DNA of 64,000 bases from Escherichia phage vB_EcoM_ACG-C40. The position numbers and the translations under genes are program-made. Shown here piece after piece: positions 47,212 to 57,995 of this stretch. Numbering within the stretch: position 1 is the first letter of the stretch; each line of letters starts with the position of its first letter. Below the pieces are notes generated by a model. That model saw nothing but the letters and a program-made list of their open reading frames with translations. It had not been told where the DNA came from and did no database searches. The DNA is taken from the sequence record NC_019399.1; one strand, 5' to 3'.

Positions 47212-47512
47212 TTTCTTCTCGGTCAAATCGGTGTTTACAATGGCGACATTTATAACGAAGAATACTAGTCTGCCAATGAATCAATTGAACCTGTTCAGTT
47301 CCACATTCAGGGCAATTAGGAACGTTTTTAGAAGCCCTTTCACGACGTTCAACCATGACCATTACAGAATCCCAATTAACAGGAGGGCTATAATCATCAC
47401 AACCATAAATCTTTCCACGCATTTCCAAATTGTCTTCTTCACCAGCCATAATAATTTTAATTAGACTAGAATTACTTGAAGCTGCAATGTCTTCTAATAA
47501 ACGCTTTTTCAT
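47198..47512 (-). CDS. zinc-ribbon protein (104 aa)
   Basis: CPECG...CRHCKH motif. Confidence 0.5.
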
Positions 47513-47739
47513 TTCAATACCTCAATAGCATTACGTAAACCATTTGCTTTTGCATTAAGAGCTTTTAACAATTTGGTGTGTTCTGCAATTTGGGCTTCAA
47601 CTTCAATCAAACGGGCATTGAGATATTCACGTTCTTCACTCAGATTATCAACCTTTTCTACTTTAGGCTCTTTTACAACTGTCTTATATGTATTAGGGTT
47701 CTTCAGTTTAATTAGAATGCGTGAGCTGTTCGCGAGCAG
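47509..47739 (-). pseudogene. start-less 76-codon ORF, probable frameshifted continuation of 47708..47923
   Basis: Open frame LLANSSRILIKLKNPNTYKTVVKEPKVEK... with no in-frame ATG/GTG/TTG; TGA overlaps next ATG. Confidence 0.35.
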
Positions 47740-47923
47740 TCATTTGCGTAATATATCCAGCTTTATCAAAATGTCGCAGCCATTCACTGCTATTCATATA
47801 CTTAAAGTGAATGGAACTATTAACTCTATCAGGGTCTAAATTATTTTCGCACAAAAATGTCATAGCATCACGAGTATAGCTGGCATTACGAACCATATCT
47901 TCAATTTGAGAACGAGTTTTCAT
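47708..47923 (-). CDS. hypothetical protein (71 aa), possibly N-terminal part of a frameshifted gene
   Basis: ATG start; followed in +1 frame by the start-less ORF. Confidence 0.45.
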   Translation of the reverse strand: MKTRSQIEDMVRNASYTRDAMTFLCENNLDPDRVNSSIHFKYMNSSEWLRHFDKAGYITQMTAREQLTHSN

Positions 47924-48830: not shown

Positions 48831-49235
48831 TCAATTTTCAATTTTACTAAATACACAGAATATGATGGAAAAGACTATATAAGCACCGCATACAGATTGA
48901 ACTAATACCATTCCAAAGAACCAAACAATATTATCAAACAATGTCTGTTTTACGTCGAAAGGACGTAAACTTACAGTAATATTATCGCCTTTTTCTATTG
49001 ATGAATACATCTCTGGTGAAATATATTCACTAAATCTATAACCGTCTTTGAGTTCATATACAGCAATAAATGATAAACTAGACCCCTTTCCTTGAGTTCC
49101 TGTAAGGGTATTAACTACAGTAACATCATAATCTTTATAATGCATATAATCATTAATTGCGTAATAACCATATGCAACTACTACACATAAACAACATATC
49201 AATAAATTCAATCTTTTAATTATCAACTGTTTCAT
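48831..49235 (-). CDS. membrane protein (134 aa)
   Basis: Two hydrophobic helices; middle-type promoter upstream. Confidence 0.5.
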   Translation of the reverse strand: MKQLIIKRLNLLICCLCVVVAYGYYAINDYMHYKDYDVTVVNTLTGTQGKGSSLSFIAVYELKDGYRFSEYISPEMYSSIEKGDNITVSLRPFDVKQTLFDNIVWFFGMVLVQSVCGAYIVFSIIFCVFSKIEN

Positions 49236-49264
49236 AATAATCTCAGTTAAAAGGGCTTAGAACC

Positions 49265-49288
49265 ATTATACCATCCTTGGTATAAAGC
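49265..49288 (-). promoter_or_regulatory. possible middle promoter (degenerate MotA box)
   Basis: CGCTTTA box, 11-bp spacer, TGGTATAAT extended -10. Confidence 0.35.
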
Positions 49289-49290
49289 GG

Positions 49291-49818
49291 TTATGCGAGT
49301 ACCGTCTTTAACCGTTCTTCAAACTTCCGAAGAGTATTTTGGCGTTCAGCTCTTTGCTTTTTGTAAGTTTCAATACGCTCTGAAATGAGAGCGTATCGTT
49401 CATTTACTGATTCTTTCATAAAATCAGGAATTTCACGAGAAGCTTTAATCTCGTCAAATTTATCAATAACAGCTTGCTCTTCAGCAATTAAGTTATCATA
49501 CATCAAAATATCTTTCTTGATGAACTCAATATCTTCTTGAGTTACACGAGATAATTTAGATGCTTTATCCTTTTTGTACTGTTCGTTAGTATCACGAGAC
49601 CAGTGTAATGTACGATTTTTATTCGTATTCTTGTAAATTTCTACAATACCAATCTCATCGATAATAACGATCCAATTCCAACGGGATTTGTAAATTTGTC
49701 CTCCATCAACAGTGATTTCACCTCCGATTGAGATGTCATTAAAGAACTTGCTTTGTGCTTCAGATTTAAATTTACCATCGTTGTAATTTACCAAGTTGAA
49801 AATATCTTTAGCGTTCAT
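49291..49818 (-). CDS. hypothetical protein (175 aa)
   Basis: ATG start; early promoter upstream. Confidence 0.5.
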   Translation of the reverse strand: MNAKDIFNLVNYNDGKFKSEAQSKFFNDISIGGEITVDGGQIYKSRWNWIVIIDEIGIVEIYKNTNKNRTLHWSRDTNEQYKKDKASKLSRVTQEDIEFIKKDILMYDNLIAEEQAVIDKFDEIKASREIPDFMKESVNERYALISERIETYKKQRAERQNTLRKFEERLKTVLA

Positions 49819-49845
49819 TTTTGTTCCTCCGTAGTTGATAGTTGT

Positions 49846-49875
49846 ATAGTACCACAGAGGAACGGTCTTGTAAAC
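49846..49875 (-). promoter_or_regulatory. T4-type early promoter
   Basis: GTTTAC, 18 bp, TGGTACTAT. Confidence 0.65.
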
Positions 49876-49877
49876 AA

Positions 49878-50192
49878 CTAAAAGAAACTTCTTTCACAAT
49901 TTTTTCCACTGAACCAAGCGCTCACTGCTTTCTTAGTCTCAGGAGCAGTGTTATCCATAAACCATTCAAAGGCAGCCTTTTTATGATTCTGGAGGGCTTC
50001 TCGGGCTTTAATCTGCTCACGGTCTATTAACACTAACATATGAGCCTTTCTTGTCACCATGGGCTTCTTATGATTTTTTGAATATTCCCAATCATTTGTC
50101 CATCGCATCGTTGTTGCGAATTGAAGTACAGCTTCTTTAATCTTAGTTTCGTAAATTTCACGAGCCTTTGAGTATAACATCATTACCTCCAT
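49878..50192 (-). CDS. hypothetical protein (104 aa)
   Basis: ATG start. Confidence 0.5.
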   Translation of the reverse strand: MEVMMLYSKAREIYETKIKEAVLQFATTMRWTNDWEYSKNHKKPMVTRKAHMLVLIDREQIKAREALQNHKKAAFEWFMDNTAPETKKAVSAWFSGKNCERSFF

Positions 50193-50282
50193 TTACCAGT
50201 TTAATTCTAGTCATCTTTTTGATGGCAGTCCATATAATCTATTTCTGAACTGCCTTTTTGTCTTAGAAGTCCTCTTATGAAT

Positions 50283-51251
50283 TTATTTCAGAAGAGTAAC
50301 CTCAGCAATTTCTTCCCAACCGTTTTTGTCGGTCATAATAAAGTCAGCAAGATAAAGAGCAGTACGCAGTGAAACATTACGTAAACGGTTAACATTGACT
50401 TTCATCCATGATAATGCTTTATAAGTTTCTTCATCAGAAAGACCGCGCTTTTGCATCATGTCGGTTGAAAGAATAACATCTTCAACCCTGACCATAATTT
50501 CTTCATTAGTGTGAACACCCAAATCTAAATAAACTGAGCGGGACACTAATGCTTGTAAATGTGGAGCAAGTTTAGTACCACGGTCTAATTCGCGGTCAAT
50601 GTCAACGTTTGTGATAAAAACAATCGTTCCTTTAAATTCAAACTCACGCTCAATGCCTTTTTCTTCTAAGTAAGAAGATGCAGTGCTCCAGCAGACTTTA
50701 CGGGTCTCTCCAGTGTCCAGAGCAGCTTTCAGAAGATTAAGAATGTCCATATCAGAGAAAACATCCACATCATCAATCAAAAGGACAGAATTCTCTTCAC
50801 GATTATTCCAAAGCTGCTCATAAAGACCAATACCAGAGATTTTACCATTAATGCTTTTATATTCAATGTATCCATTATCATTTGCTTTATTTAAAGCTTT
50901 ATCTAAAGAATACGTTTTACCAATACCCGCCGCACCAGAGATAATTAATGAACGAATGTTTCCGTTAATAATACCATTCGTCATCATTCCCATAACATTA
51001 AATCTTTTATTAATGCGGGTTTTCATATCTTCATATGATTCTTTAACTTCTTCAACTTTTACACCATCATATGAAATGTCTGATTTGTAAACCCAAACAC
51101 CGCGACGCTTACCGTCAATTTCAACAAAAACTTTACCATCTCCTTGTGCATCTACCGGAGCATTATCTGGGAACCATTCGCCTAAGAGCTCAAAAGTTCC
51201 AGAGATTTCTTTACCAAAGTAGATACCCTTATTGATAGTTACAGTTTTCAT
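50283..51251 (-). CDS. AAA-type P-loop ATPase (322 aa)
   Basis: Walker A GAAGIGKT, Walker B LLIDDVD; ATG 51251 after GGAG (track start is GTG). Confidence 0.6.
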   Translation of the reverse strand: MKTVTINKGIYFGKEISGTFELLGEWFPDNAPVDAQGDGKVFVEIDGKRRGVWVYKSDISYDGVKVEEVKESYEDMKTRINKRFNVMGMMTNGIINGNIRSLIISGAAGIGKTYSLDKALNKANDNGYIEYKSINGKISGIGLYEQLWNNREENSVLLIDDVDVFSDMDILNLLKAALDTGETRKVCWSTASSYLEEKGIEREFEFKGTIVFITNVDIDRELDRGTKLAPHLQALVSRSVYLDLGVHTNEEIMVRVEDVILSTDMMQKRGLSDEETYKALSWMKVNVNRLRNVSLRTALYLADFIMTDKNGWEEIAEVTLLK

Positions 51252-51287
51252 TTTATTCTCCAATTTCACATTTGTTTTGATAGGGTA

Positions 51288-51317
51288 ATAGTATCACACT
51301 ACTACCCTGCTGTAAAC
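51288..51317 (-). promoter_or_regulatory. T4-type early promoter upstream of ATPase gene
   Basis: GTTTAC, 18 bp, TACTAT; conserved leader CATTTTATTCTCCAA follows. Confidence 0.6.
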
Positions 51318-51320
51318 AAT

Positions 51321-51584
51321 TTATTTTAATGTTTGCCAAATTTTTACTGCTTCGCGACGAGATACTTCTACAGCTCCAAGTTCTACAGCTTTTTGGCGTC
51401 GCCGAGCGTGTAAGTCATAATGTTTAATGCGTTTATCTTGAAACCAAGAACGTTTCATTCCTATTGCTTCTGCCATTTCGTGAAGCTCTTCAATATCTCC
51501 ATCAGTGAACATATGACAATTTTTAGTTGGATGACCGCGAAGTTTCCATCCATGATTCATTAAAACATCTACGTAAACTGTCAT
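51321..51584 (-). CDS. hypothetical protein (87 aa), GC-richer than surroundings
   Basis: ATG start; compositionally distinct. Confidence 0.5.
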   Translation of the reverse strand: MTVYVDVLMNHGWKLRGHPTKNCHMFTDGDIEELHEMAEAIGMKRSWFQDKRIKHYDLHARRRQKAVELGAVEVSRREAVKIWQTLK

Positions 51585-51730
51585 TGATTCTTCTCCAAAT
51601 AAGTTTCGATAATTTTCTGGGCGAGATAAACCGCGTTATCTTCAGTTGCGTCTTCTAAGAAACTTTCAAAACACTCTGAAATTTCTTCTGTATCAATCAA
51701 CTTTTTTACTTCAATTGGTGTAATTTTCAT
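51581..51730 (-). CDS. small acidic protein (49 aa), not in the ORF track
   Basis: ATG 51730; TGA overlaps next ATG (ATGA); MKITPIEVKKLIDTEEISECFESFLED... Confidence 0.45.
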   Translation of the reverse strand: MKITPIEVKKLIDTEEISECFESFLEDATEDNAVYLAQKIIETYLEKNQ

Positions 51731-51766
51731 TTTGTTTTCCGTTTAAGTGTTTGTTTTGATAGTTGT

Positions 51767-51796
51767 ATAGTACCATAAAGCTTTATGCTTGTAAAC
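51767..51796 (-). promoter_or_regulatory. T4-type early promoter
   Basis: GTTTAC, 18 bp, TGGTACTAT; part of duplicated 37-nt cassette. Confidence 0.65.
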
Positions 51797-51825
51797 AATT
51801 TTGTGAAAAATTTTTGAAATAAAAA

Positions 51826-51845
51826 AGGGGACCTCTAGGGCCCCC
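51826..51845 (-). terminator. intrinsic terminator
   Basis: Imperfect GC-rich hairpin with A-run on plus strand upstream. Confidence 0.45.
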
Positions 51846-51854
51846 TTTATGCTT

Positions 51855-52340
51855 TTATTCCATTTCTATTATATGCATGCTCTTTTTGCTATCAAAATAT
51901 ATGTTTTTAACTGTTAACTCCGAATTAATTGGCAATAAAAACTCTCTTTCATAATCCACCATAGAAAGATTATCATAAAGCTTATTAAGCTTATCATCAT
52001 CAATCTGGCCAGATTCTTCAATTGCGATTAAATTTTCTAAAATTTCAATCATAGCAGTTGAATAGTCAAAAACGTTTGCATTTTTTAACACTATTAAAAC
52101 ATTAGTCATATAGCGTTCTGCTGCAAATGTTTCAGCTATATGAGATTCACTACTAAAGGAAGTTATTCTTTTAAATTTGATTCTCCTATTAACTTCAAAC
52201 TTATGAGATAGTACTTCCTCTATTGCAAGTCCTCTAAAAAGCATGTCTTTAATCTCAAGTTTGTCTTTAATGTAATCATTAACACGCTTATGATTAAAAT
52301 CATTAATTTTGTTGCCAAGGCATTTCATTAAAATATGCAT
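51855..52340 (-). CDS. hypothetical protein (161 aa)
   Basis: ATG 52340 (track start 52355 is TTG). Confidence 0.5.
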   Translation of the reverse strand: MHILMKCLGNKINDFNHKRVNDYIKDKLEIKDMLFRGLAIEEVLSHKFEVNRRIKFKRITSFSSESHIAETFAAERYMTNVLIVLKNANVFDYSTAMIEILENLIAIEESGQIDDDKLNKLYDNLSMVDYEREFLLPINSELTVKNIYFDSKKSMHIIEME

Positions 52341-52387
52341 TGTGTTTCTCTTCAATTTTTAAAGAACGATTAATTAACTACAAATAT

Positions 52388-52417
52388 ATTATAATATGCT
52401 TTATGATAGAAGTAAAC
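52388..52417 (-). promoter_or_regulatory. T4-type early promoter
   Basis: GTTTAC, 18 bp, TATAAT; part of duplicated 37-nt cassette. Confidence 0.65.
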
Positions 52418-52449
52418 AATTTTGTGAAAAATTTTTGAAATAAAAAAGA

Positions 52450-52463
52450 GAGCCCGAAGGCTC
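52450..52463 (-). terminator. intrinsic terminator downstream of nucleotidyltransferase-like gene
   Basis: GAGCC-UUCG-GGCUC followed by U-rich tract. Confidence 0.6.
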
Positions 52464-52467
52464 CCTA

Positions 52468-53481
52468 TCATTTATAATAACTTCGGTGGTTTTCAAGATA
52501 AACCCTCTCAAGGAAGTCATCCCAAAAACCCATGTCTACTTTTTGCTGCATACCGTTCTTAGAAGCTTCAGTAGATGCTGCTTCTACTTGATCGACCACA
52601 TCTTCCAAAAACTCTTGAACCGTTTTAAATGGATGTTTACCCAACTTCACGTCGAGAATAAATGGAGCATCTTGGAGTGGATAAACCAAGTCACCAGTTT
52701 TGTAAATTTCCAATAGTTGGAGTCCACCACGGCAAGCATGACTCAGAGCTTTCCAGTCAATACCTTCATTGGCTTCGGCCTTACGAGCACGTTCACCGTA
52801 TTCAGCATCTAATTTGTTCAGTGACTGCTTAAGCTCAATAAGAGAAAGCGTTGTCTGATATTTACGACCCAACACTGTGTAGAACGTCTGTGGGCCTGTT
52901 TTCTCATGATTATGGAACACCCATTCACAGAATTCGTTTTCTGGAAGACGATGCTTAATATCTTCAACTTTAGTACGACGCTGCTTAATAGAACCATCTT
53001 CTTGGTAATCAACCCATTGCTCAGGGATTTGATTAACTACTTTCAATACATCACGTAATGCAGCCAAACGAGAACCCTTAACGCCGTATTTAGAAGCTTG
53101 CTTACGGACATATCCTAAATAGGATTTCATGTTAGTCGTATAAAAACGAGAACGGTTGTCTTGAATAAACTTCCACACATCAGGCAAATCAGATTTAACC
53201 ACTAGTTCAGGTGGAGTGTGAAGCATATCCAATGCTACAGTTTCACCATCTGCTGCTAATTTAAAGAAATACTTAAGACTATACAATTCGTGGTCAATAT
53301 CATCTTTAGTGTTTTTAGATGATGTGTTGTTAGTGTTTTTACTCATGTGCTCTTTAACATTTCCGATAAGAATATCACGAGCAGGAGGAACAAAGATTTC
53401 TTTAAAATCTACATCAGATTCTGGGGTAGAAGTTCCATAAAGATGACTACCAAAATAGCTTTTCATTACTGTTTTCATCAT
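52468..53481 (-). CDS. pol-beta-superfamily nucleotidyltransferase-like protein (337 aa)
   Basis: N-terminal GSHLYGTSTPESDVD fits the GS-x(9-13)-DxD nucleotidyltransferase signature. Confidence 0.5.
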   Translation of the reverse strand: MMKTVMKSYFGSHLYGTSTPESDVDFKEIFVPPARDILIGNVKEHMSKNTNNTSSKNTKDDIDHELYSLKYFFKLAADGETVALDMLHTPPELVVKSDLPDVWKFIQDNRSRFYTTNMKSYLGYVRKQASKYGVKGSRLAALRDVLKVVNQIPEQWVDYQEDGSIKQRRTKVEDIKHRLPENEFCEWVFHNHEKTGPQTFYTVLGRKYQTTLSLIELKQSLNKLDAEYGERARKAEANEGIDWKALSHACRGGLQLLEIYKTGDLVYPLQDAPFILDVKLGKHPFKTVQEFLEDVVDQVEAASTEASKNGMQQKVDMGFWDDFLERVYLENHRSYYK

Positions 53482-53939
53482 TCAGCCTTATATTCAATAA
53501 CAGGACATACTTTAGCTTTACGAGCTTTTAAAAATTCAACGATAATCGATTTCTTGGGTTGAATAGGAGGTAAACCTTTATACGCCCTATCAATATTTTC
53601 TACGTGTAAAGCATAATCCTTTTTCCATTTATAATCTTTATATTTTTCACGCAGTTGTGCAGGAATAACAAATGAACCGATAATAAGTAAAACAAGCAAA
53701 ATGGCAAGTATAAATGCTGATGGAATAAGAGTCCATAAACTACCAAAAATAAGCCATTTCTGTATGATTTCTGCGCAGATGATAGTTAGACCTACGAGTA
53801 TAGTACATCCGAAAAAAGAAACGAAAAATGTAGGGATAACAATAGACCAAAAGTATGCGCACAGCGTCTTAGGTCGTTGCCATTCATCGTTAAACAATTT
53901 GAATAATTTATAGTGCCAAGAGTTTTCATTAATAATCAT
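53478..53939 (-). CDS. membrane protein (153 aa)
   Basis: Three predicted TM helices; ATGA-type overlap with neighbour. Confidence 0.5.
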   Translation of the reverse strand: MIINENSWHYKLFKLFNDEWQRPKTLCAYFWSIVIPTFFVSFFGCTILVGLTIICAEIIQKWLIFGSLWTLIPSAFILAILLVLLIIGSFVIPAQLREKYKDYKWKKDYALHVENIDRAYKGLPPIQPKKSIIVEFLKARKAKVCPVIEYKAE

Positions 53940-53941
53940 AA

Positions 53942-54463
53942 TTATCCTTTCATTGAAGGCGTAACGGTTGTTAAATACTTAATCATAGCTTCAGCTTCTG
54001 ATTTTGACAATGAAATTTCTCCATTGTTTTGACGAATAGAAATAAAATCCGGATGACGGTCACCACCAGCTTTTAAAACACACATATAAGTATCAACTTC
54101 GCCTTCAATATTTGAAATGATTGAAGCAGTTCCACATGAATGTGGTTTTTGATAAATCAATACAGCTTTTCTTCCACCGTTTGACTGTTCATAAACTTTT
54201 AATACATCAAACAAATCACTTCTTTTATCAATAGCTAAAATGTTATTTTCATCTTCAATGTTAAATCCTTCGGATACTTCATAAAGTGTCACCCATAAAT
54301 CGCCAATATCAATAACAGCGTTCACTTTTCCATGACTTTCAAGAGCATGACAAATTTTCTTGATTTCGTCATAACTCATTTTAATAATATCATCTCCTTG
54401 AATAAGGAAGATGTCATTTTTAAATTCAACACGAATTAAACCACTTCCACTTGAAATAAACAT
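53942..54463 (-). CDS. hypothetical protein, paralog A (173 aa)
   Basis: C-terminus SEAEAMIKYLTTVTPSMKG resembles next ORF. Confidence 0.5.
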   Translation of the reverse strand: MFISSGSGLIRVEFKNDIFLIQGDDIIKMSYDEIKKICHALESHGKVNAVIDIGDLWVTLYEVSEGFNIEDENNILAIDKRSDLFDVLKVYEQSNGGRKAVLIYQKPHSCGTASIISNIEGEVDTYMCVLKAGGDRHPDFISIRQNNGEISLSKSEAEAMIKYLTTVTPSMKG

Positions 54464-54469
54464 ATTTCC

Positions 54470-55003
54470 TCACTTTGAAATCATAGTTGGAATGACAGAA
54501 TCGAGATAAGTCTTTAGCGCAATAGCTTCGTCTTTGGTAAATGTGACAATATACGATCGAAAATCATCAATTTGACGAATAGTTAAGACATCACCATCTT
54601 CATAGCATTTTGATACGTTTAAAACAGTTTCATCATTCTGATTGCAAGCGTTAGTAATAATAGCATTGCAATTTTTGAGCCATTTTAAACTATGTTTTCT
54701 TTCATTAGAATAATAAAAATATTTAATCTTATCTATAAAACTATCCCAATGGATAACTGATAAACACATTGACTCACTTTTAATATTAAATCCTGGGCAT
54801 GAAGAATAAAAATGAATTTTGTGCTCATCATTGATGCTTACTATTTTATCAGTATAAGGATATTCAATTTGGGTTAAATGAATGATTTCACTAGGCGTAA
54901 AATATAGCATATCGTCTTCTTGCGTCAAACGATACATGTTATTTACTTTTTCTATAGCCAATTCACCAAAAAGCGGACTAACTTCTAATACTAATCGTTT
55001 CAT
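54470..55003 (-). CDS. hypothetical protein, paralog B (177 aa)
   Basis: C-terminus DEAIALKTYLDSVIPTMISK; ATG 55003 after AAAGGA (track start is GTG). Confidence 0.5.
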   Translation of the reverse strand: MKRLVLEVSPLFGELAIEKVNNMYRLTQEDDMLYFTPSEIIHLTQIEYPYTDKIVSINDEHKIHFYSSCPGFNIKSESMCLSVIHWDSFIDKIKYFYYSNERKHSLKWLKNCNAIITNACNQNDETVLNVSKCYEDGDVLTIRQIDDFRSYIVTFTKDEAIALKTYLDSVIPTMISK

Positions 55004-55004
55004 A

Positions 55005-55271
55005 TTAATCCTTTTTATTGGCACGAATTTGTTCTAAAATTTTAGAATATTCCTTTGTATCAGATTTACGTACAATTGATACACTATAAGGCATACTATC
55101 GGTGTCTTTTATAAAGCGTTCCAAATGACACTCTAACAAAATTTCTGGATTATAAATCGTGTACATCAAATTACCTGTTGCTCCACGATATTGGCAGATT
55201 TCTACTGATTGAACACCATTCCATAATTTTGTTAAAACTAAATCACCTACTTCTAATTTAGGAAAGCCCAT
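55005..55271 (-). CDS. hypothetical protein (88 aa)
   Basis: ATG 55271 (track start 55283 is TTG). Confidence 0.45.
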   Translation of the reverse strand: MGFPKLEVGDLVLTKLWNGVQSVEICQYRGATGNLMYTIYNPEILLECHLERFIKDTDSMPYSVSIVRKSDTKEYSKILEQIRANKKD

Positions 55272-55272
55272 G

Positions 55273-55458
55273 TTATTCACCAATTAAAGTTTCAATATAA
55301 GAATCAAGATTTACTTTAGCTTCTTCCATAAGAGTTTTGTATTTAATCTTGTTAGCATGTCCGGAGAAAGCTGATTCATCAATAATTGTTGATGTATGAA
55401 CAGCTTTACTATACGTCTCAATTAATTCTCTTAATTTAAAAGCCTGCTCACTTGTCAT
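55273..55458 (-). CDS. hypothetical protein (61 aa)
   Basis: ATG start. Confidence 0.45.
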   Translation of the reverse strand: MTSEQAFKLRELIETYSKAVHTSTIIDESAFSGHANKIKYKTLMEEAKVNLDSYIETLIGE

Positions 55459-55590
55459 TACATACTCCTTTGAATAATATCAATAATGTTGTTCACCAGA
55501 TTATAAGTAAACATTGGGTAATTATATTGAATCATCACATACACAACAAACAAAACTTTCATTCTCTTCTCCTTGGCAGTCGACAAGATT

Positions 55591-55620
55591 ACTATACCAT
55601 AACCTTGCCAACTTGTAAAC
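55591..55620 (-). promoter_or_regulatory. T4-type early promoter
   Basis: GTTTAC, 18 bp, TGGTATAGT. Confidence 0.55.
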
Positions 55621-55622
55621 CA

Positions 55623-55796
55623 TTAAATGACGTTTTCGATAAAATTCTGAAGCTTTGTATGAGCATCAACCATGATTTTCATTTCTTCCTTTGCGAAAGC
55701 TGTACCTCTTTCCCGAGCAGAATACTCATAGTCAGAAACTGCATTAGCATATTCTTCAATTAGCTTCATTAAAAACATCTGCTTTTCAGTTTTCAT
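55623..55796 (-). CDS. small protein (57 aa), not in the ORF track
   Basis: ATG 55796 after AGGTGG; MKTEKQMFLMKLIEEYANAVSDYEYSARERG... Confidence 0.45.
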   Translation of the reverse strand: MKTEKQMFLMKLIEEYANAVSDYEYSARERGTAFAKEEMKIMVDAHTKLQNFIENVI

Positions 55797-55980
55797 TATT
55801 CCACCTAATCATTTCAAGATATTGAACTAACTTAGCTTTGGATTTATCCAAATCCTTTTTAGCTGCTTCTATACCGTCGTATGAATATCCTTCACAATGC
55901 TCAACTGCTAATTGGTATGAATCTATTTCAATATCACGTGCTAATTTAATAATTTTTTCAAACTGTTCACGTGTTAGCAT
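55786..55980 (-). CDS. hypothetical protein (64 aa)
   Basis: ATG start. Confidence 0.45.
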   Translation of the reverse strand: MLTREQFEKIIKLARDIEIDSYQLAVEHCEGYSYDGIEAAKKDLDKSKAKLVQYLEMIRWNNEN

Positions 55981-55982
55981 AA

Positions 55983-56186
55983 TTAAACTCTCGTATTATG
56001 ATCGATAATTTCATCAAGAAACATATCTAACGCTTCTAAAGCATTATCAACTTTAGCTTCAAATTTTTCAATACCTTTATTTGCAATGCCTGCCGAAAAC
56101 CAAGCAAAGTCACTAAGTTCCTCATCTGCTTTGCGAATTAAAGCTACCAATTCTTTAATTTTATCTGCTTGTTCAATTCTAGTCAT
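55983..56186 (-). CDS. hypothetical protein (67 aa)
   Basis: ATG 56186 after GGTGG (track start 56222 is GTG). Confidence 0.45.
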   Translation of the reverse strand: MTRIEQADKIKELVALIRKADEELSDFAWFSAGIANKGIEKFEAKVDNALEALDMFLDEIIDHNTRV

Positions 56187-56374
56187 TATTCCACCACATA
56201 TGAAAGAGAGAATATTGCACACGCCATATGAGTTGCAGCTTCATCACACATATCATAACGTTTCTTAAGAAGTTCTACAAGTTCTTCACTAGTAACTTCA
56301 TCCATGTCGACGAAAAAATCACCATTAATGATGACGTAGATATTTCCTTCTTGATTAAGTGCTTCAATTTTCAT
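56186..56374 (-). CDS. hypothetical protein (62 aa)
   Basis: ATG 56374 after AGAGGAGAA, downstream of the promoter (track start is TTG). Confidence 0.45.
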
Positions 56375-56402
56375 GATGTTCTCCTCTTTATCCGATAGTT
56401 GT

Positions 56403-56432
56403 ATAGTATCACAGCTCAAATGGAAAGTAAAC
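56403..56432 (-). promoter_or_regulatory. T4-type early promoter
   Basis: GTTTAC, 18 bp, TACTAT. Confidence 0.6.
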
Positions 56433-56447
56433 CGGTAAAATGAAAAA

Positions 56448-56465
56448 AGTCTCCCGAAGGAGACT
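56448..56465 (-). terminator. intrinsic terminator
   Basis: AGTCTCC-UUCG-GGAGACT followed by UUUUUUCAUUUUACC. Confidence 0.6.
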
Positions 56466-56469
56466 AATG

Positions 56470-56856
56470 TTATTCGAGGGAAAGAAGATACTTACTCTGG
56501 TAAAACATTCCAGTAATATCATCTATCGTGCTTTGAATAGCTGGAGGCATTTCTTTGTAAATTCTGTTAGATTGGTCTAGTATGCGATCAATCATTTTAA
56601 TTGTGTCGGTAGGAAGTTTACTGGCATCTGGAATTGAAGGTGTGTATTTTCTACCAGAATACCCCAAATATTGCTCACCAAATTTATCAATCAAATCTGG
56701 CAACTCGGAGAAAATAAAATCGTATGCTTTGTGTCTAGCATAACTTTTAGTTTCAAAATGTGCAGAATGAAAATAAGCTTGTGCAGCCATTAATAAACCC
56801 AAGTATTCATCTGCCTTTGAAGGTTTTCCACTTTGTGAAAAGTCGCTGAATTTCAT
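56470..56856 (-). CDS. hypothetical protein (rI.1 position, 128 aa)
   Basis: ATG start; terminator downstream. Confidence 0.5.
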
Positions 56857-57146
56857 TCAGTCTCCAATTTAATGTTCATAATTCTAGCGTATGATTGTGC
56901 CATCTCCGCGCCTCGTTCTATACATTCAAAATCAGAAGAGCACGGGTCATTTTTATAGGTCGTTCTCATAAAACTATAGAATTGTTCAGACGATTCTACG
57001 CTTTTATTTTCAAAAAGCATATAAACGCGCCTAATACCAGATTCCATAAATTTATCAAAATGAGGATCGACATTCGCTTCAATCGATGGAGATAAAACAA
57101 ATGACAATCCTAGCATGGCAAATAGTGCCGTTGCTTTTAAGGCCAT
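56853..57146 (-). CDS. rI: lysis inhibition regulator RI (97 aa)
   Basis: N-terminal signal-anchor; size and position upstream of tk side; AGGAGG RBS. Confidence 0.7.
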   Translation of the reverse strand: MALKATALFAMLGLSFVLSPSIEANVDPHFDKFMESGIRRVYMLFENKSVESSEQFYSFMRTTYKNDPCSSDFECIERGAEMAQSYARIMNIKLETE

Positions 57147-57158
57147 AAAGGCCTCCTA

Positions 57159-57371
57159 TCATTTTTGCCCTGTATTTACTTTATGCCGATGCACGGCCTT
57201 AACTTTATCAAGGTATTTTTCAAAATTTCGCAATCTAGTATAGTCTGCCGGAGATTGGTTGAGTGATACTTCTCGACGCAAAGCTGAAATGATATTTCCA
57301 ACTTCCCTACGAATTTCATCTAATTGAAGAACAGTAAGATTGCGAAGTTGCTTTTCAGTTAATTGTAGCAT
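57159..57371 (-). CDS. hypothetical protein (rI.-1 position, 70 aa)
   Basis: ATG start; late promoter and AAGGGG upstream. Confidence 0.5.
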
Positions 57372-57396
57372 ATATACCCCTTTAGTTAGATAAACC

Positions 57397-57404
57397 TATT
57401 TATA
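57397..57404 (-). promoter_or_regulatory. late promoter
   Basis: Exact TATAAATA about 25 nt upstream of ATG 57371. Confidence 0.55.
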
Positions 57405-57413
57405 ACTTTTGCA

Positions 57414-57995
57414 CTAACCAAGCTTTTTAGTTAATTCATTCCAATGTTTTCTACACAAAGAAACATAAATTTCATCACCAATACAGATTTGATTACCTTC
57501 TTTAACTGGTGTTCCATCTTCCATTAATCGAGCTGTCATAATCGCTTTTTTACCACAATGACAAACTGCCTTTAGTTCAATAAGTTTATCTGCAATCGCT
57601 AAAAGTTCTTTAGAACCTTCAAACAATTTTCCGGCGAAATCAGTCCTTAATCCATAAGCCATAACAGGAACATTATATGTATCAACAATTCGACTCAATT
57701 GATGCACTTGTTCAGTTTTTAAAAACTGAGCTTCATCTACAAATACGCAATGAATATCTTTTTGTGCTTCAGCCCATTTATAGAACTCGAAAATATCCAT
57801 ATCATCTGTAATAATATTCGCTTCCTGTTTAATTCCAATGCGAGAAACGACTTCGCAGACAGAATCGCGAGTATCAATAGCAGGCTTAAGAACTAATACA
57901 CTCATTCCACGTTCTTTATAATTATGTGCAGCAGTCAAAAGAGAAGCAGATTTTCCAGCATTCATTGCTGCATAAGTAAAAATTAAACTCGCCAT
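57414..57995 (-). CDS. tk: thymidine kinase (193 aa)
   Basis: P-loop MNAGKS, C-terminal CxxC...C zinc site; matches T4 Tk. Confidence 0.93.
   Translation of the reverse strand: MASLIFTYAAMNAGKSASLLTAAHNYKERGMSVLVLKPAIDTRDSVCEVVSRIGIKQEANIITDDMDIFEFYKWAEAQKDIHCVFVDEAQFLKTEQVHQLSRIVDTYNVPVMAYGLRTDFAGKLFEGSKELLAIADKLIELKAVCHCGKKAIMTARLMEDGTPVKEGNQICIGDEIYVSLCRKHWNELTKKLG

Follow-up and report, generated by a model that had tools for sequence, protein, structure and literature searches.

The block of early genes at positions 50283–55003 of the genome stretch analysed here appears to be a mosaic made up of four or more early transcription units, each inherited independently, and not a single system, a reading held at a probability of roughly 0.75. 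The stretch, referred to below as the window, is the first 64 kb (64,000 nucleotides) of Escherichia phage vB_EcoM_ACG-C40 (NC_019399.1), a Tequatrovirus (T4-like phage), and the block runs on the minus strand throughout, from nrdC.10 to the ortholog of T4 mobD.1. In this mosaic nrdC.10 and nrdC.11 would be vertically inherited accessory genes, parted by two small mobile early-gene cassettes, one of which carries ART161, a Mod-family ADP-ribosyltransferase (ART) homolog, and the other orf49 and a DUF4031 gene. A first-pass annotation had put the block forward as the best candidate in the window for an uncharacterised functional module, possibly one for host takeover or anti-defence. The value of the present analysis is mainly corrective, in that the apparent module is a textbook hyperplastic region: the block belongs to the nrdC–tk hyperplastic region of T4-like phages and is an ordinary example of a region that is already known.

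Gene content and distribution among T4-like phages

The open reading frames (ORFs) of the first-pass annotation were recovered on the minus strand where it had placed them, position 50283 being the stop end of nrdC.10 and position 55003 the ATG of the last of two tandem paralogs, and profile searches bore out its calls of an AAA ATPase, a pol-beta-type nucleotidyltransferase and tandem paralogs. Its list of consecutive genes was incomplete, as it omitted orf49 (51581–51730) and ART161 (51855–52340), the latter being plausibly the best host-takeover or anti-defence candidate of the block. The location claimed for the block, in the variable early-gene region between nrdC and tk, was confirmed by alignment with the annotated T2, VEc20 and T4 records, in which the gene order of T2 and T4 agrees with that of the block; the ORF list and the alignment together place rI at 56853–57146 and tk at 57414–57995. 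The first base of the window opens an ORF of 725 residues.

DNA of the block matches 739 phage records, almost all of them Escherichia, Shigella and other enterobacterial T4-like phages, with phage VEc20 as the best match (97.5%), and the whole 4.7 kb is covered by only 7 of the 739. Single units have been gained or lost independently between the close relatives T4, T2 and VEc20. Alignment with the annotated T4 record shows that T4 lacks orf49, the DUF4031 gene, ART161, the membrane-protein gene and the first of the two paralogs (paralog a); there the HNH homing endonuclease gene mobD sits between nrdC.11 and mobD.1 instead, whereas the arrangement upstream of nrdC.11 in the window is free of mobD. 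ART161 is present and orf49/DUF4031 absent in T2, and other loci have orf49/DUF4031 without ART161. The numbers of records differ 30-fold among the block genes, from 1516 for nrdC.11, through 1310 for nrdC.10 and 323 for the DUF4031 gene (157 of them at 90% identity or more), down to ART161, found at 90% identity or more in 42 phage records.

Comparison with close relatives gives a ratio of non-synonymous to synonymous substitution rates (dN/dS) of 0.00–0.19 for nrdC.10, nrdC.11, the DUF4031 gene, orf49, the membrane-protein gene, both paralogs and the neighbouring tudor-domain gene, which indicates that these genes are maintained. Each gene of the block probably plays a part of its own in host takeover or host range.

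Early promoters, terminators and transcription units

Both strands of positions 49800–57400 were scanned for the early-promoter pattern GTTTAC-N16-18-TAnn[AC]T, which gave five sites, where 0.066 were expected, all of them on the minus strand. Three of the five lie in the block, at 52417 (before ART161), 51796 (before orf49) and 51317 (before nrdC.10), and the other two outside it, at 56432 and 49875. The T4-type early promoter of nrdC.10 (51288–51317, minus strand) reads GTTTAC-N17-TACTAT and has a TG. Terminator hairpins with U-runs are found only after nrdC.11 (52466–52447) and after ART161 (51848–51824), and a scan for MotA-box middle promoters gave no site within the block. It had been claimed that each gene has an early promoter and a terminator of its own; three promoters and two terminators are indeed present, but not one of each per gene. 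Where such pairs are real, they are recombination cassettes of the promoter-early stem-loop (PeSL) type, the meaning of which is already known.

Intergenic gaps of −1 to 6 nt separate the tudor-domain gene, both paralogs, the membrane-protein gene and nrdC.11, so that the paralogs, the membrane-protein gene and nrdC.11 have no room for a promoter or terminator of their own. All five genes would be read from the nearest upstream T4-type early promoter (56403–56432, minus strand), a pattern match that is the putative start of a long unit ending after nrdC.11. The extent of this unit is inferred because promoter and terminator matches are lacking in between and the gaps measure −11 to 6 nt. The first of the four proposed units would then be nrdC.10, a conserved phage AAA+ ATPase gene with its own early promoter, and the second the putatively translationally coupled pair of orf49 and the DUF4031 gene, again with its own early promoter. 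A 621-bp ART161 cassette between two PeSLs that share an exact 36-nt core would form the third, and the fourth would be the tail of the long early unit, comprising the tudor-domain gene, two y05I-like paralogs, the membrane-protein gene, nrdC.11 and the terminator.

The spacer between nrdC.10 and nrdC.9 (50195–50285, minus strand) has a 9-bp hairpin, GGCAGUUCA...UGGACUGCC, with a 13-nt loop (−16.3 kcal/mol, z −2.3). Since this hairpin has no U-run, it is not a canonical terminator. A weak promoter-like site, TGGACT-17-TAGAAT, lies in the same spacer.

Promoter-early stem-loops and the movement of cassettes

The two spacers flanking ART161 are direct repeats of 54 nt, 85% identical and 621 bp apart, and have the architecture of PeSLs on the minus strand. 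PeSL-1 (52388–52466) consists of the hairpin GGGAGCC-UUCG-GGCUCUC with its U-run (52466–52447), a 36-nt core (52447–52412) and the early promoter of ART161 (52417–52388). PeSL-2 (51767–51848) consists of the hairpin GGGGGCCC-UAGAG-GGUCCCC with its U-run (51848–51824), the 36-nt core (51826–51791) and the early promoter of orf49–DUF4031 (51796–51767). In each of them a GC hairpin and U-run are followed by an AT-rich stretch and then by GTTTAC-N17 and a −10 box; the hairpins have −14.7 and −17.4 kcal/mol, and GTTTAC-N17-TATAAT or TACTAT lies within about 30 nt. The core is exact in both PeSLs (51791–51826 and 52412–52447) and has no further copy in the 64 kb.

In T4, which has no ART gene here, nrdC.11 and nrdC.10 are separated by one spacer that joins the hairpin of the upstream PeSL to the promoter half of the downstream PeSL, exactly the product expected of recombination between two PeSLs. 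Recombination of this kind is known to yield indels and mini-circles in T4-type phages (PMC2839356, PMC4122927), and PeSLs and their role in the indels of hyperplastic regions have been described by Arbiol et al. 2010 (PMC2839356) and Comeau et al. 2014 (PMC4122927). The elements of the window resemble the known ones in joining a stem-loop terminator to a strong sigma-70-like early promoter, in being set in a hyperplastic region amid non-essential early genes, and in that an indel between close relatives is framed by homologous copies and the cassette is exchanged among phages. However, published PeSLs come mainly from RB49/phi1, PST/T4 and nt-1/KVP40, whereas those described here lie at the nrdC.11/nrdC.10 junction; their cargo, unlike that of described PeSLs, is a Mod-family ADP-ribosyltransferase gene. 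The comparison presented here shows that whether a phage has the ART cassette or lacks it is explained by homologous recombination between PeSLs.

Discordant identities show that both small cassettes, ART161 and orf49 with the DUF4031 gene, have been transferred from one phage genus to another. At the DNA level ART161 is 97–98% identical in three Citrobacter-phage-like loci, where nrdC.10 is 74–76% and nrdC.11 67–68% identical, and the segment of high identity extends from about 51756–51839 to 52460, i.e. from PeSL to PeSL. Similarly, orf49/DUF4031 is 88–92% identical in loci whose flanks are 69–72% identical, and in other genera the pair is found about 1.7 kb downstream of nrdC.10, not upstream of it. 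The ART161 cassette is a clean natural case in which to test gene transfer mediated by PeSLs, and ART161 a candidate determinant of host range.

A different junction was seen in a close relative without ART161 (locus L004, 5784–5857), where the spacer between nrdC.11 and orf49 measures only 74 nt and has no hairpin 3' half, U-run or −35 box. This junction is unlike that of T4, and because of these losses orf49–DUF4031 would be read through from nrdC.11.

NrdC.11, NrdC.10 and the linkage between them

The 336-residue product of nrdC.11 (52468–53478, minus strand) is a pol-beta nucleotidyltransferase of the RlaP family, matching PF10127 RlaP (E 2.6e-11, 44.1 bits against a cut-off of 23) and phrog_388; the Pfam match spans only residues 6–134 of 336 and model positions 23–142 of 249. 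The pol-beta signature noted earlier is GSHLYGTSTPESDVD, at residues 10–24, and the GS-x10-DVD motif and third Asp are present, with the catalytic residues D22, D24 and D84 invariant in nine orthologs, down to 54% identity. Among close relatives the dN/dS of the gene is 0.02–0.07. T4 NrdC.11, which is 98% identical to the protein of the window, has been named an RlaP and placed in cluster 5 by the authors of a 2025 preprint, who reported that PfRlaP and PaRlaP of Pseudomonas add one or two nucleoside monophosphates to RNA 3'-OH ends and that these two enzymes can help to restore tRNAs that have lost a nucleotide (PMC12776372). NrdC.11 is like the PfRlaP/PaRlaP family in its Pfam match above threshold and in its pol-beta GS...DxD motif with the third Asp. 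In bacteria, RlaPs are found within rtcB–rtcA operons, whereas nrdC.11 has no adjacent RNA ligase gene, and no match to RNA ligase or RNA-repair families was obtained among the genes profiled at 47.9–57.4 kb. The RNA ligases and Pnk of T4 are encoded elsewhere in the genome. Association with RNA ligase genes gave the RlaP family its name, but it is not required of every member.

A role for RlaPs alongside RNA ligases against RloC-type nucleases has been predicted in the literature. By family, NrdC.11 would extend the 3' ends of damaged RNA by one or two nucleotides, a form of phage tRNA repair against host anticodon nucleases, and could serve as a phage model for the proposed role of RlaPs in repairing tRNAs damaged by such nucleases. 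The nucleotide-signalling defences at which the first-pass annotation had aimed its proposed experiment are a different matter. A CD-NTase or nucleotide-signalling role for NrdC.11 was considered and rejected on the grounds of the Pfam match and the naming of the T4 protein (PMC12776372). As an RNA 3'-end enzyme and not one of the signalling type, NrdC.11 gives a test against nucleotide-signalling defences no specific basis.

The neighbouring nrdC.10 (50283–51251, minus strand) is 98–99% identical to its T4 ortholog and encodes an AAA+ ATPase of 322 residues, in which a beta-rich N-terminal domain (approximately residues 1–61) precedes the AAA+ core and lid. The Walker A motif GAAGIGKT reported earlier lies at residues 106–113, followed by Walker B LLIDD at 157, sensor-1 FITN at 212 and SRS at 237; an SR(S) (Arg-finger) box and a lid with an SLR sensor-2-like motif complete an AAA+ fold. 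The AlphaFold2 (AF2) model superposes on AAA+ modules over 180–200 residues, and sequence matches to single AAA+ clades (MoxR, clamp loader, DnaA/Hda) all fall under the curated cut-offs. The Walker B motif ends in DD, in contrast to the DE of AAA+ ATPases generally, and the N-terminal beta domain has no family match when the isolated domain is searched against Pfam. A relationship between this domain and the neighbouring tudor-domain protein was rejected (hhalign probability 0.3%). NrdC.10 may be an oligomeric remodeller driven by ATP, with a variable N-terminal domain that picks the substrate, as its family would suggest. Searches of the PDB with single sequences and profiles gave no significant match for the nrdC.10, nrdC.11 and y05I proteins.

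Several points weigh against the mosaic. Co-occurrence was judged from 43 loci with nrdC.10 homologs, among the matches listed, and from record counts; the transcription units are drawn from consensus matches only, and every biochemical function is assigned by homology. ART161, with a dN/dS near or above 1, is possibly decaying rather than functional. Finally, nrdC.10 lies within about 1 kb after nrdC.11, and the membrane-protein gene before it, in all nine enterobacterial and Acinetobacter T4-like loci among the matches listed.

This constant order, kept down to 54–66% protein identity and in Acinetobacter phages too, could reflect a conserved core in which the membrane protein, NrdC.11 and NrdC.10 cooperate, for example in an ATP-driven delivery of damaged RNA to the nucleotidyltransferase, with the cassettes as passengers. 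The overlap of the membrane-protein stop with the nrdC.11 start and the strong purifying selection on all three genes fit this idea, which is nevertheless unlikely. T4 has kept nrdC.11 though it has lost the membrane-protein gene, and a terminator and separate promoters stand between nrdC.11 and nrdC.10. Moreover, nrdC.11 adjoins nrdC.10 only in the nine closest of the 43 loci, and among the matches listed the 8 kb around the 34 distant nrdC.10 homologs contained nrdC.11 in none of the 34 and no conserved neighbour; Aeromonas-type, Vibrio-type and jumbo-phage homologs are among those with no RlaP within 8 kb. An earlier survey of T4-like genomes found nrdC.10 in three of six and nrdC.11 in five of six. 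As T4-like genomes are broadly collinear anyway, the adjacency is explained without a functional link.

ART161, a putative third Mod-type ADP-ribosyltransferase

The 161-residue product of ART161 (51855–52340, minus strand) matches phrog_832 at 6e-24 and is 27–28% identical to the ModA and ModB proteins of the window over nearly the full length of ART161 (BLASTP E 2e-12 and 2e-13; phmmer within the window, E 3e-9 and 2e-12). Residues R36, G37, S61, E131 and E133, which form the motif R36-G37, S61 and E131-x-E133, do not vary between ART161, three of its relatives (down to 52% identity), ModA and ModB, and R36-G37 aligns with R73-G74 of ModB, the mutation of which abolishes activity. Relatives at 94%, 61% and 53% identity carry a precomputed PF26816 Mod_ADP_RT match; ART161 itself gave no match against the local Pfam, a copy that appears to be without PF26816. 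By its family, ART161 would modify host proteins using NAD, as ModA and ModB do. The likeness to T4 ModA and ModB (R-S-ExE clade, PF26816) covers the aligned R-G, S and E-x-E residues and also early expression, in the case of ART161 from a predicted promoter. However, ART161 differs from them in an N-terminus shorter by about 38–40 residues, in its position in a mobile cassette 40 kb from modA/modB, in its restriction to a few percent of T4-like phages, and in a dN/dS near 1. It would be a rare third Mod-type ADP-ribosyltransferase, moved between genera recently on a precisely bounded 621-bp cassette. The ART161-type family yields 17 matches at E ≤1e-3 among 1.84 billion representatives, and the ART161 clade forms a single 50% cluster.

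Among close orthologs (loci L001, L002, L010, L013, L022 and L027) the dN/dS of ART161 is 0.7–3.4, against values of at most 0.19 for its neighbours, and non-synonymous changes make up 7 of 8, 3 of 4, 10 of 13 and 8 of 10 nucleotide differences. These values fit either drift or diversifying selection, the counts being too small to choose. This excess could mean that the cassette genes, ART161 above all, spread through PeSL recombination as passengers, neutral or in decay, that bring the phage no advantage, a proposal in keeping with the rarity of ART161 (42 records, one 50%-identity cluster) and with its lack of about 38 residues that ModA and ModB have at their N-termini. That proposal is improbable, given that R36/G37, S61, E131 and E133 have stayed the same in ModA and ModB and in relatives with as little as 52% identity, that the reading frames of all five orthologs checked over their full length are intact, and that ART161 is served by a consensus early promoter and a terminator of its own. 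The other cassette speaks against it as well: the dN/dS of 0.00–0.14 for orf49 and the DUF4031 gene shows that this cassette is clearly constrained.

More tentatively, ART161 may be a functional mobile effector that hops between T4-like genera on its 621-bp PeSL cassette and acts on a host target other than those of Alt, ModA and ModB, such as a defence or translation protein, the excess of amino-acid changes then reflecting an arms race and not decay; this is a rather unlikely possibility.

A relative of ART161 with 61% identity (Pfam Mod_ADP_RT) was found between regA and gene 43 (DNA polymerase) of another T4-like contig (L082, 5001–5546; L083, 2946–3491), with a hairpin terminator of its own and a −10 box downstream.

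The proposal of a single anti-defence module

That all genes of the block form one co-functional host-takeover or anti-defence module, possibly directed against nucleotide-signalling defences, is very improbable and already largely refuted by the distribution data, since the adjacency, shared orientation and early character of the genes, the purifying selection on all of them but ART161, and the presence of the proven counter-defence gene nrdC.5 (against Dsr1) in the T4 copy of the region are set against independent gain and loss among T4, T2, VEc20 and other phages, a 30-fold difference in prevalence, discordant sequence histories, unlinked distant homologs, a nucleotidyltransferase that is an RlaP RNA 3'-end enzyme and not of a signalling or sponge type, the tolerance of T4 for a deletion from nrdC.11 to mobD.3 (reported in the literature), and the lack of a PADLOC match for any gene, PADLOC holding models of defence and not of anti-defence. 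Of the role proposed by the first-pass annotation, host takeover or anti-defence is plausible gene by gene, but no evidence ties the genes to a shared one. Because the promoter and terminator pairs are recombination cassettes, deletion of the whole block, as had been suggested, would mix several unrelated phenotypes.

The PADLOC search covered ten proteins at E up to 0.01 without a match; as its models describe defence systems and not anti-defence proteins, this null says little on anti-defence function. Rfam and tRNA scans of 49000–57500 gave no match, and an NCBIfam scan of the ten proteins gave nothing usable.

T4 nrdC.5 has been proven to counter the Dsr1 defence (Srikant et al. 2022, PMC9391042). 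Like the block genes it is a non-essential early gene of the nrdC–tk accessory region, a few kb away, and it illustrates that the region can hold host-range determinants; its sequence, however, is unrelated to every gene of the block, and in the window it is mostly deleted. At 47512–47923 (minus strand) the window, when compared with T4, lacks nrdC.4 entirely and the greater part of both nrdC.3 and nrdC.5. A 71-residue ORF at 47708–47923 consists of the first 69 residues of NrdC.5 (87% identity) fused to DNA that corresponds to the final 69 residues of NrdC.3. The full nrdC.5 is kept in VEc20 and T2. With nrdC.5 mostly missing, the phage of the window should be sensitive to Dsr1.

The orf49–DUF4031 pair

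The DUF4031 gene (51321–51584, minus strand) encodes 87 residues that match PF13223 at 1e-21 (77.3 bits, cut-off 25.6) and phrog_4887, and its start overlaps the stop of orf49 by 4 nt. The 49-residue product of orf49 (51581–51730, minus strand) is acidic, with 12 D/E and 5 K/R residues, and matches phrog_6888 at 5e-31; in T4-like phages orf49 always lies upstream of the DUF4031 gene. The dN/dS of the DUF4031 gene among close relatives is 0.05–0.14. Residues D6, H24, H55, Y56 and D57 of the DUF4031 protein are invariant in 30 homologs, and its AF2 model has a predicted local distance difference test (pLDDT) score of 93. Structure comparison gave no confident structural homolog, and PDB sequence searches gave no significant match for this protein or ART161. 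The protein may be a small enzyme or a ligand-binding protein built around the invariant D/H/H-Y-D cluster. The pair is strongly constrained, and the DUF4031 family, which is small, occurs in bacteria as well. In 25 distant phage and bacterial loci no neighbour family was common beyond four near-identical Rhodanobacter-type loci, a comparison limited by ORF noise in high-GC DNA.

The DUF4031 gene had also been singled out as GC-richer than its surroundings, which does not stand up: its GC content of 0.379 compares with a window mean of 0.342 (standard deviation 0.034, 264-nt windows), 14.6% of 264-nt windows reach or exceed this value, and higher values are found in nrdC.11 (0.386) and nrdC.9 (0.387).

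Membrane protein, y05I-like paralogs and upstream genes

The membrane-protein gene (53478–53939, minus strand; 153 residues, phrog_944) overlaps the nrdC.11 start with its stop and occupies the place of mobD in T4. The earlier description of its product as a three-helix membrane protein was borne out in that hydrophobic residues 25–98 are compatible with two or three transmembrane helices in a crude Kyte–Doolittle scan.

Upstream of it lie the two y05I-like paralogs on the minus strand, a (53942–54463, 173 residues) and b (54470–55003, 177 residues), the latter being the T4 mobD.1 ortholog with 85% identity. Both match PF24449 and PF24448 above the gathering score, the N domain at E 1e-34 to 3e-39 and the C domain at 8e-23 to 1e-20. 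Their paralogy, noted earlier, was confirmed, but the likeness is not confined to the C-termini as had been thought, extending over the full length (28% identity, E 9e-10). The term 'putative transcription factor' attached to y05I-like proteins is a Pfam name only. In T2 (L001, 5718–7232) gaps break the alignment of the membrane-protein gene and of both paralogs, and the annotation of that genome has two short ORFs, T2_100 and T2_101, in place of paralog a, a pattern suggestive of pseudogenes.

Just outside the block, after a gap of 1 nt, the phage tudor-domain gene (55005–55283, minus strand) encodes 92 residues matching PF24144 at 3e-40. Further upstream, the mobD.2a–mobD.5 area (55273–56222, minus strand) holds four tandem paralogs of 61, 57, 64 and 79 residues that match Pfam DUF7438 at E 1e-15 to 1e-17. 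In the matched GenBank records, many call nrdC.10, nrdC.11 and their neighbours 'thioredoxin', and mobD.4 is called 'molybdopterin-guanine dinucleotide biosynthesis protein MobD', mislabels that arose because names were propagated from the locus names nrdC.x and mobD.x.

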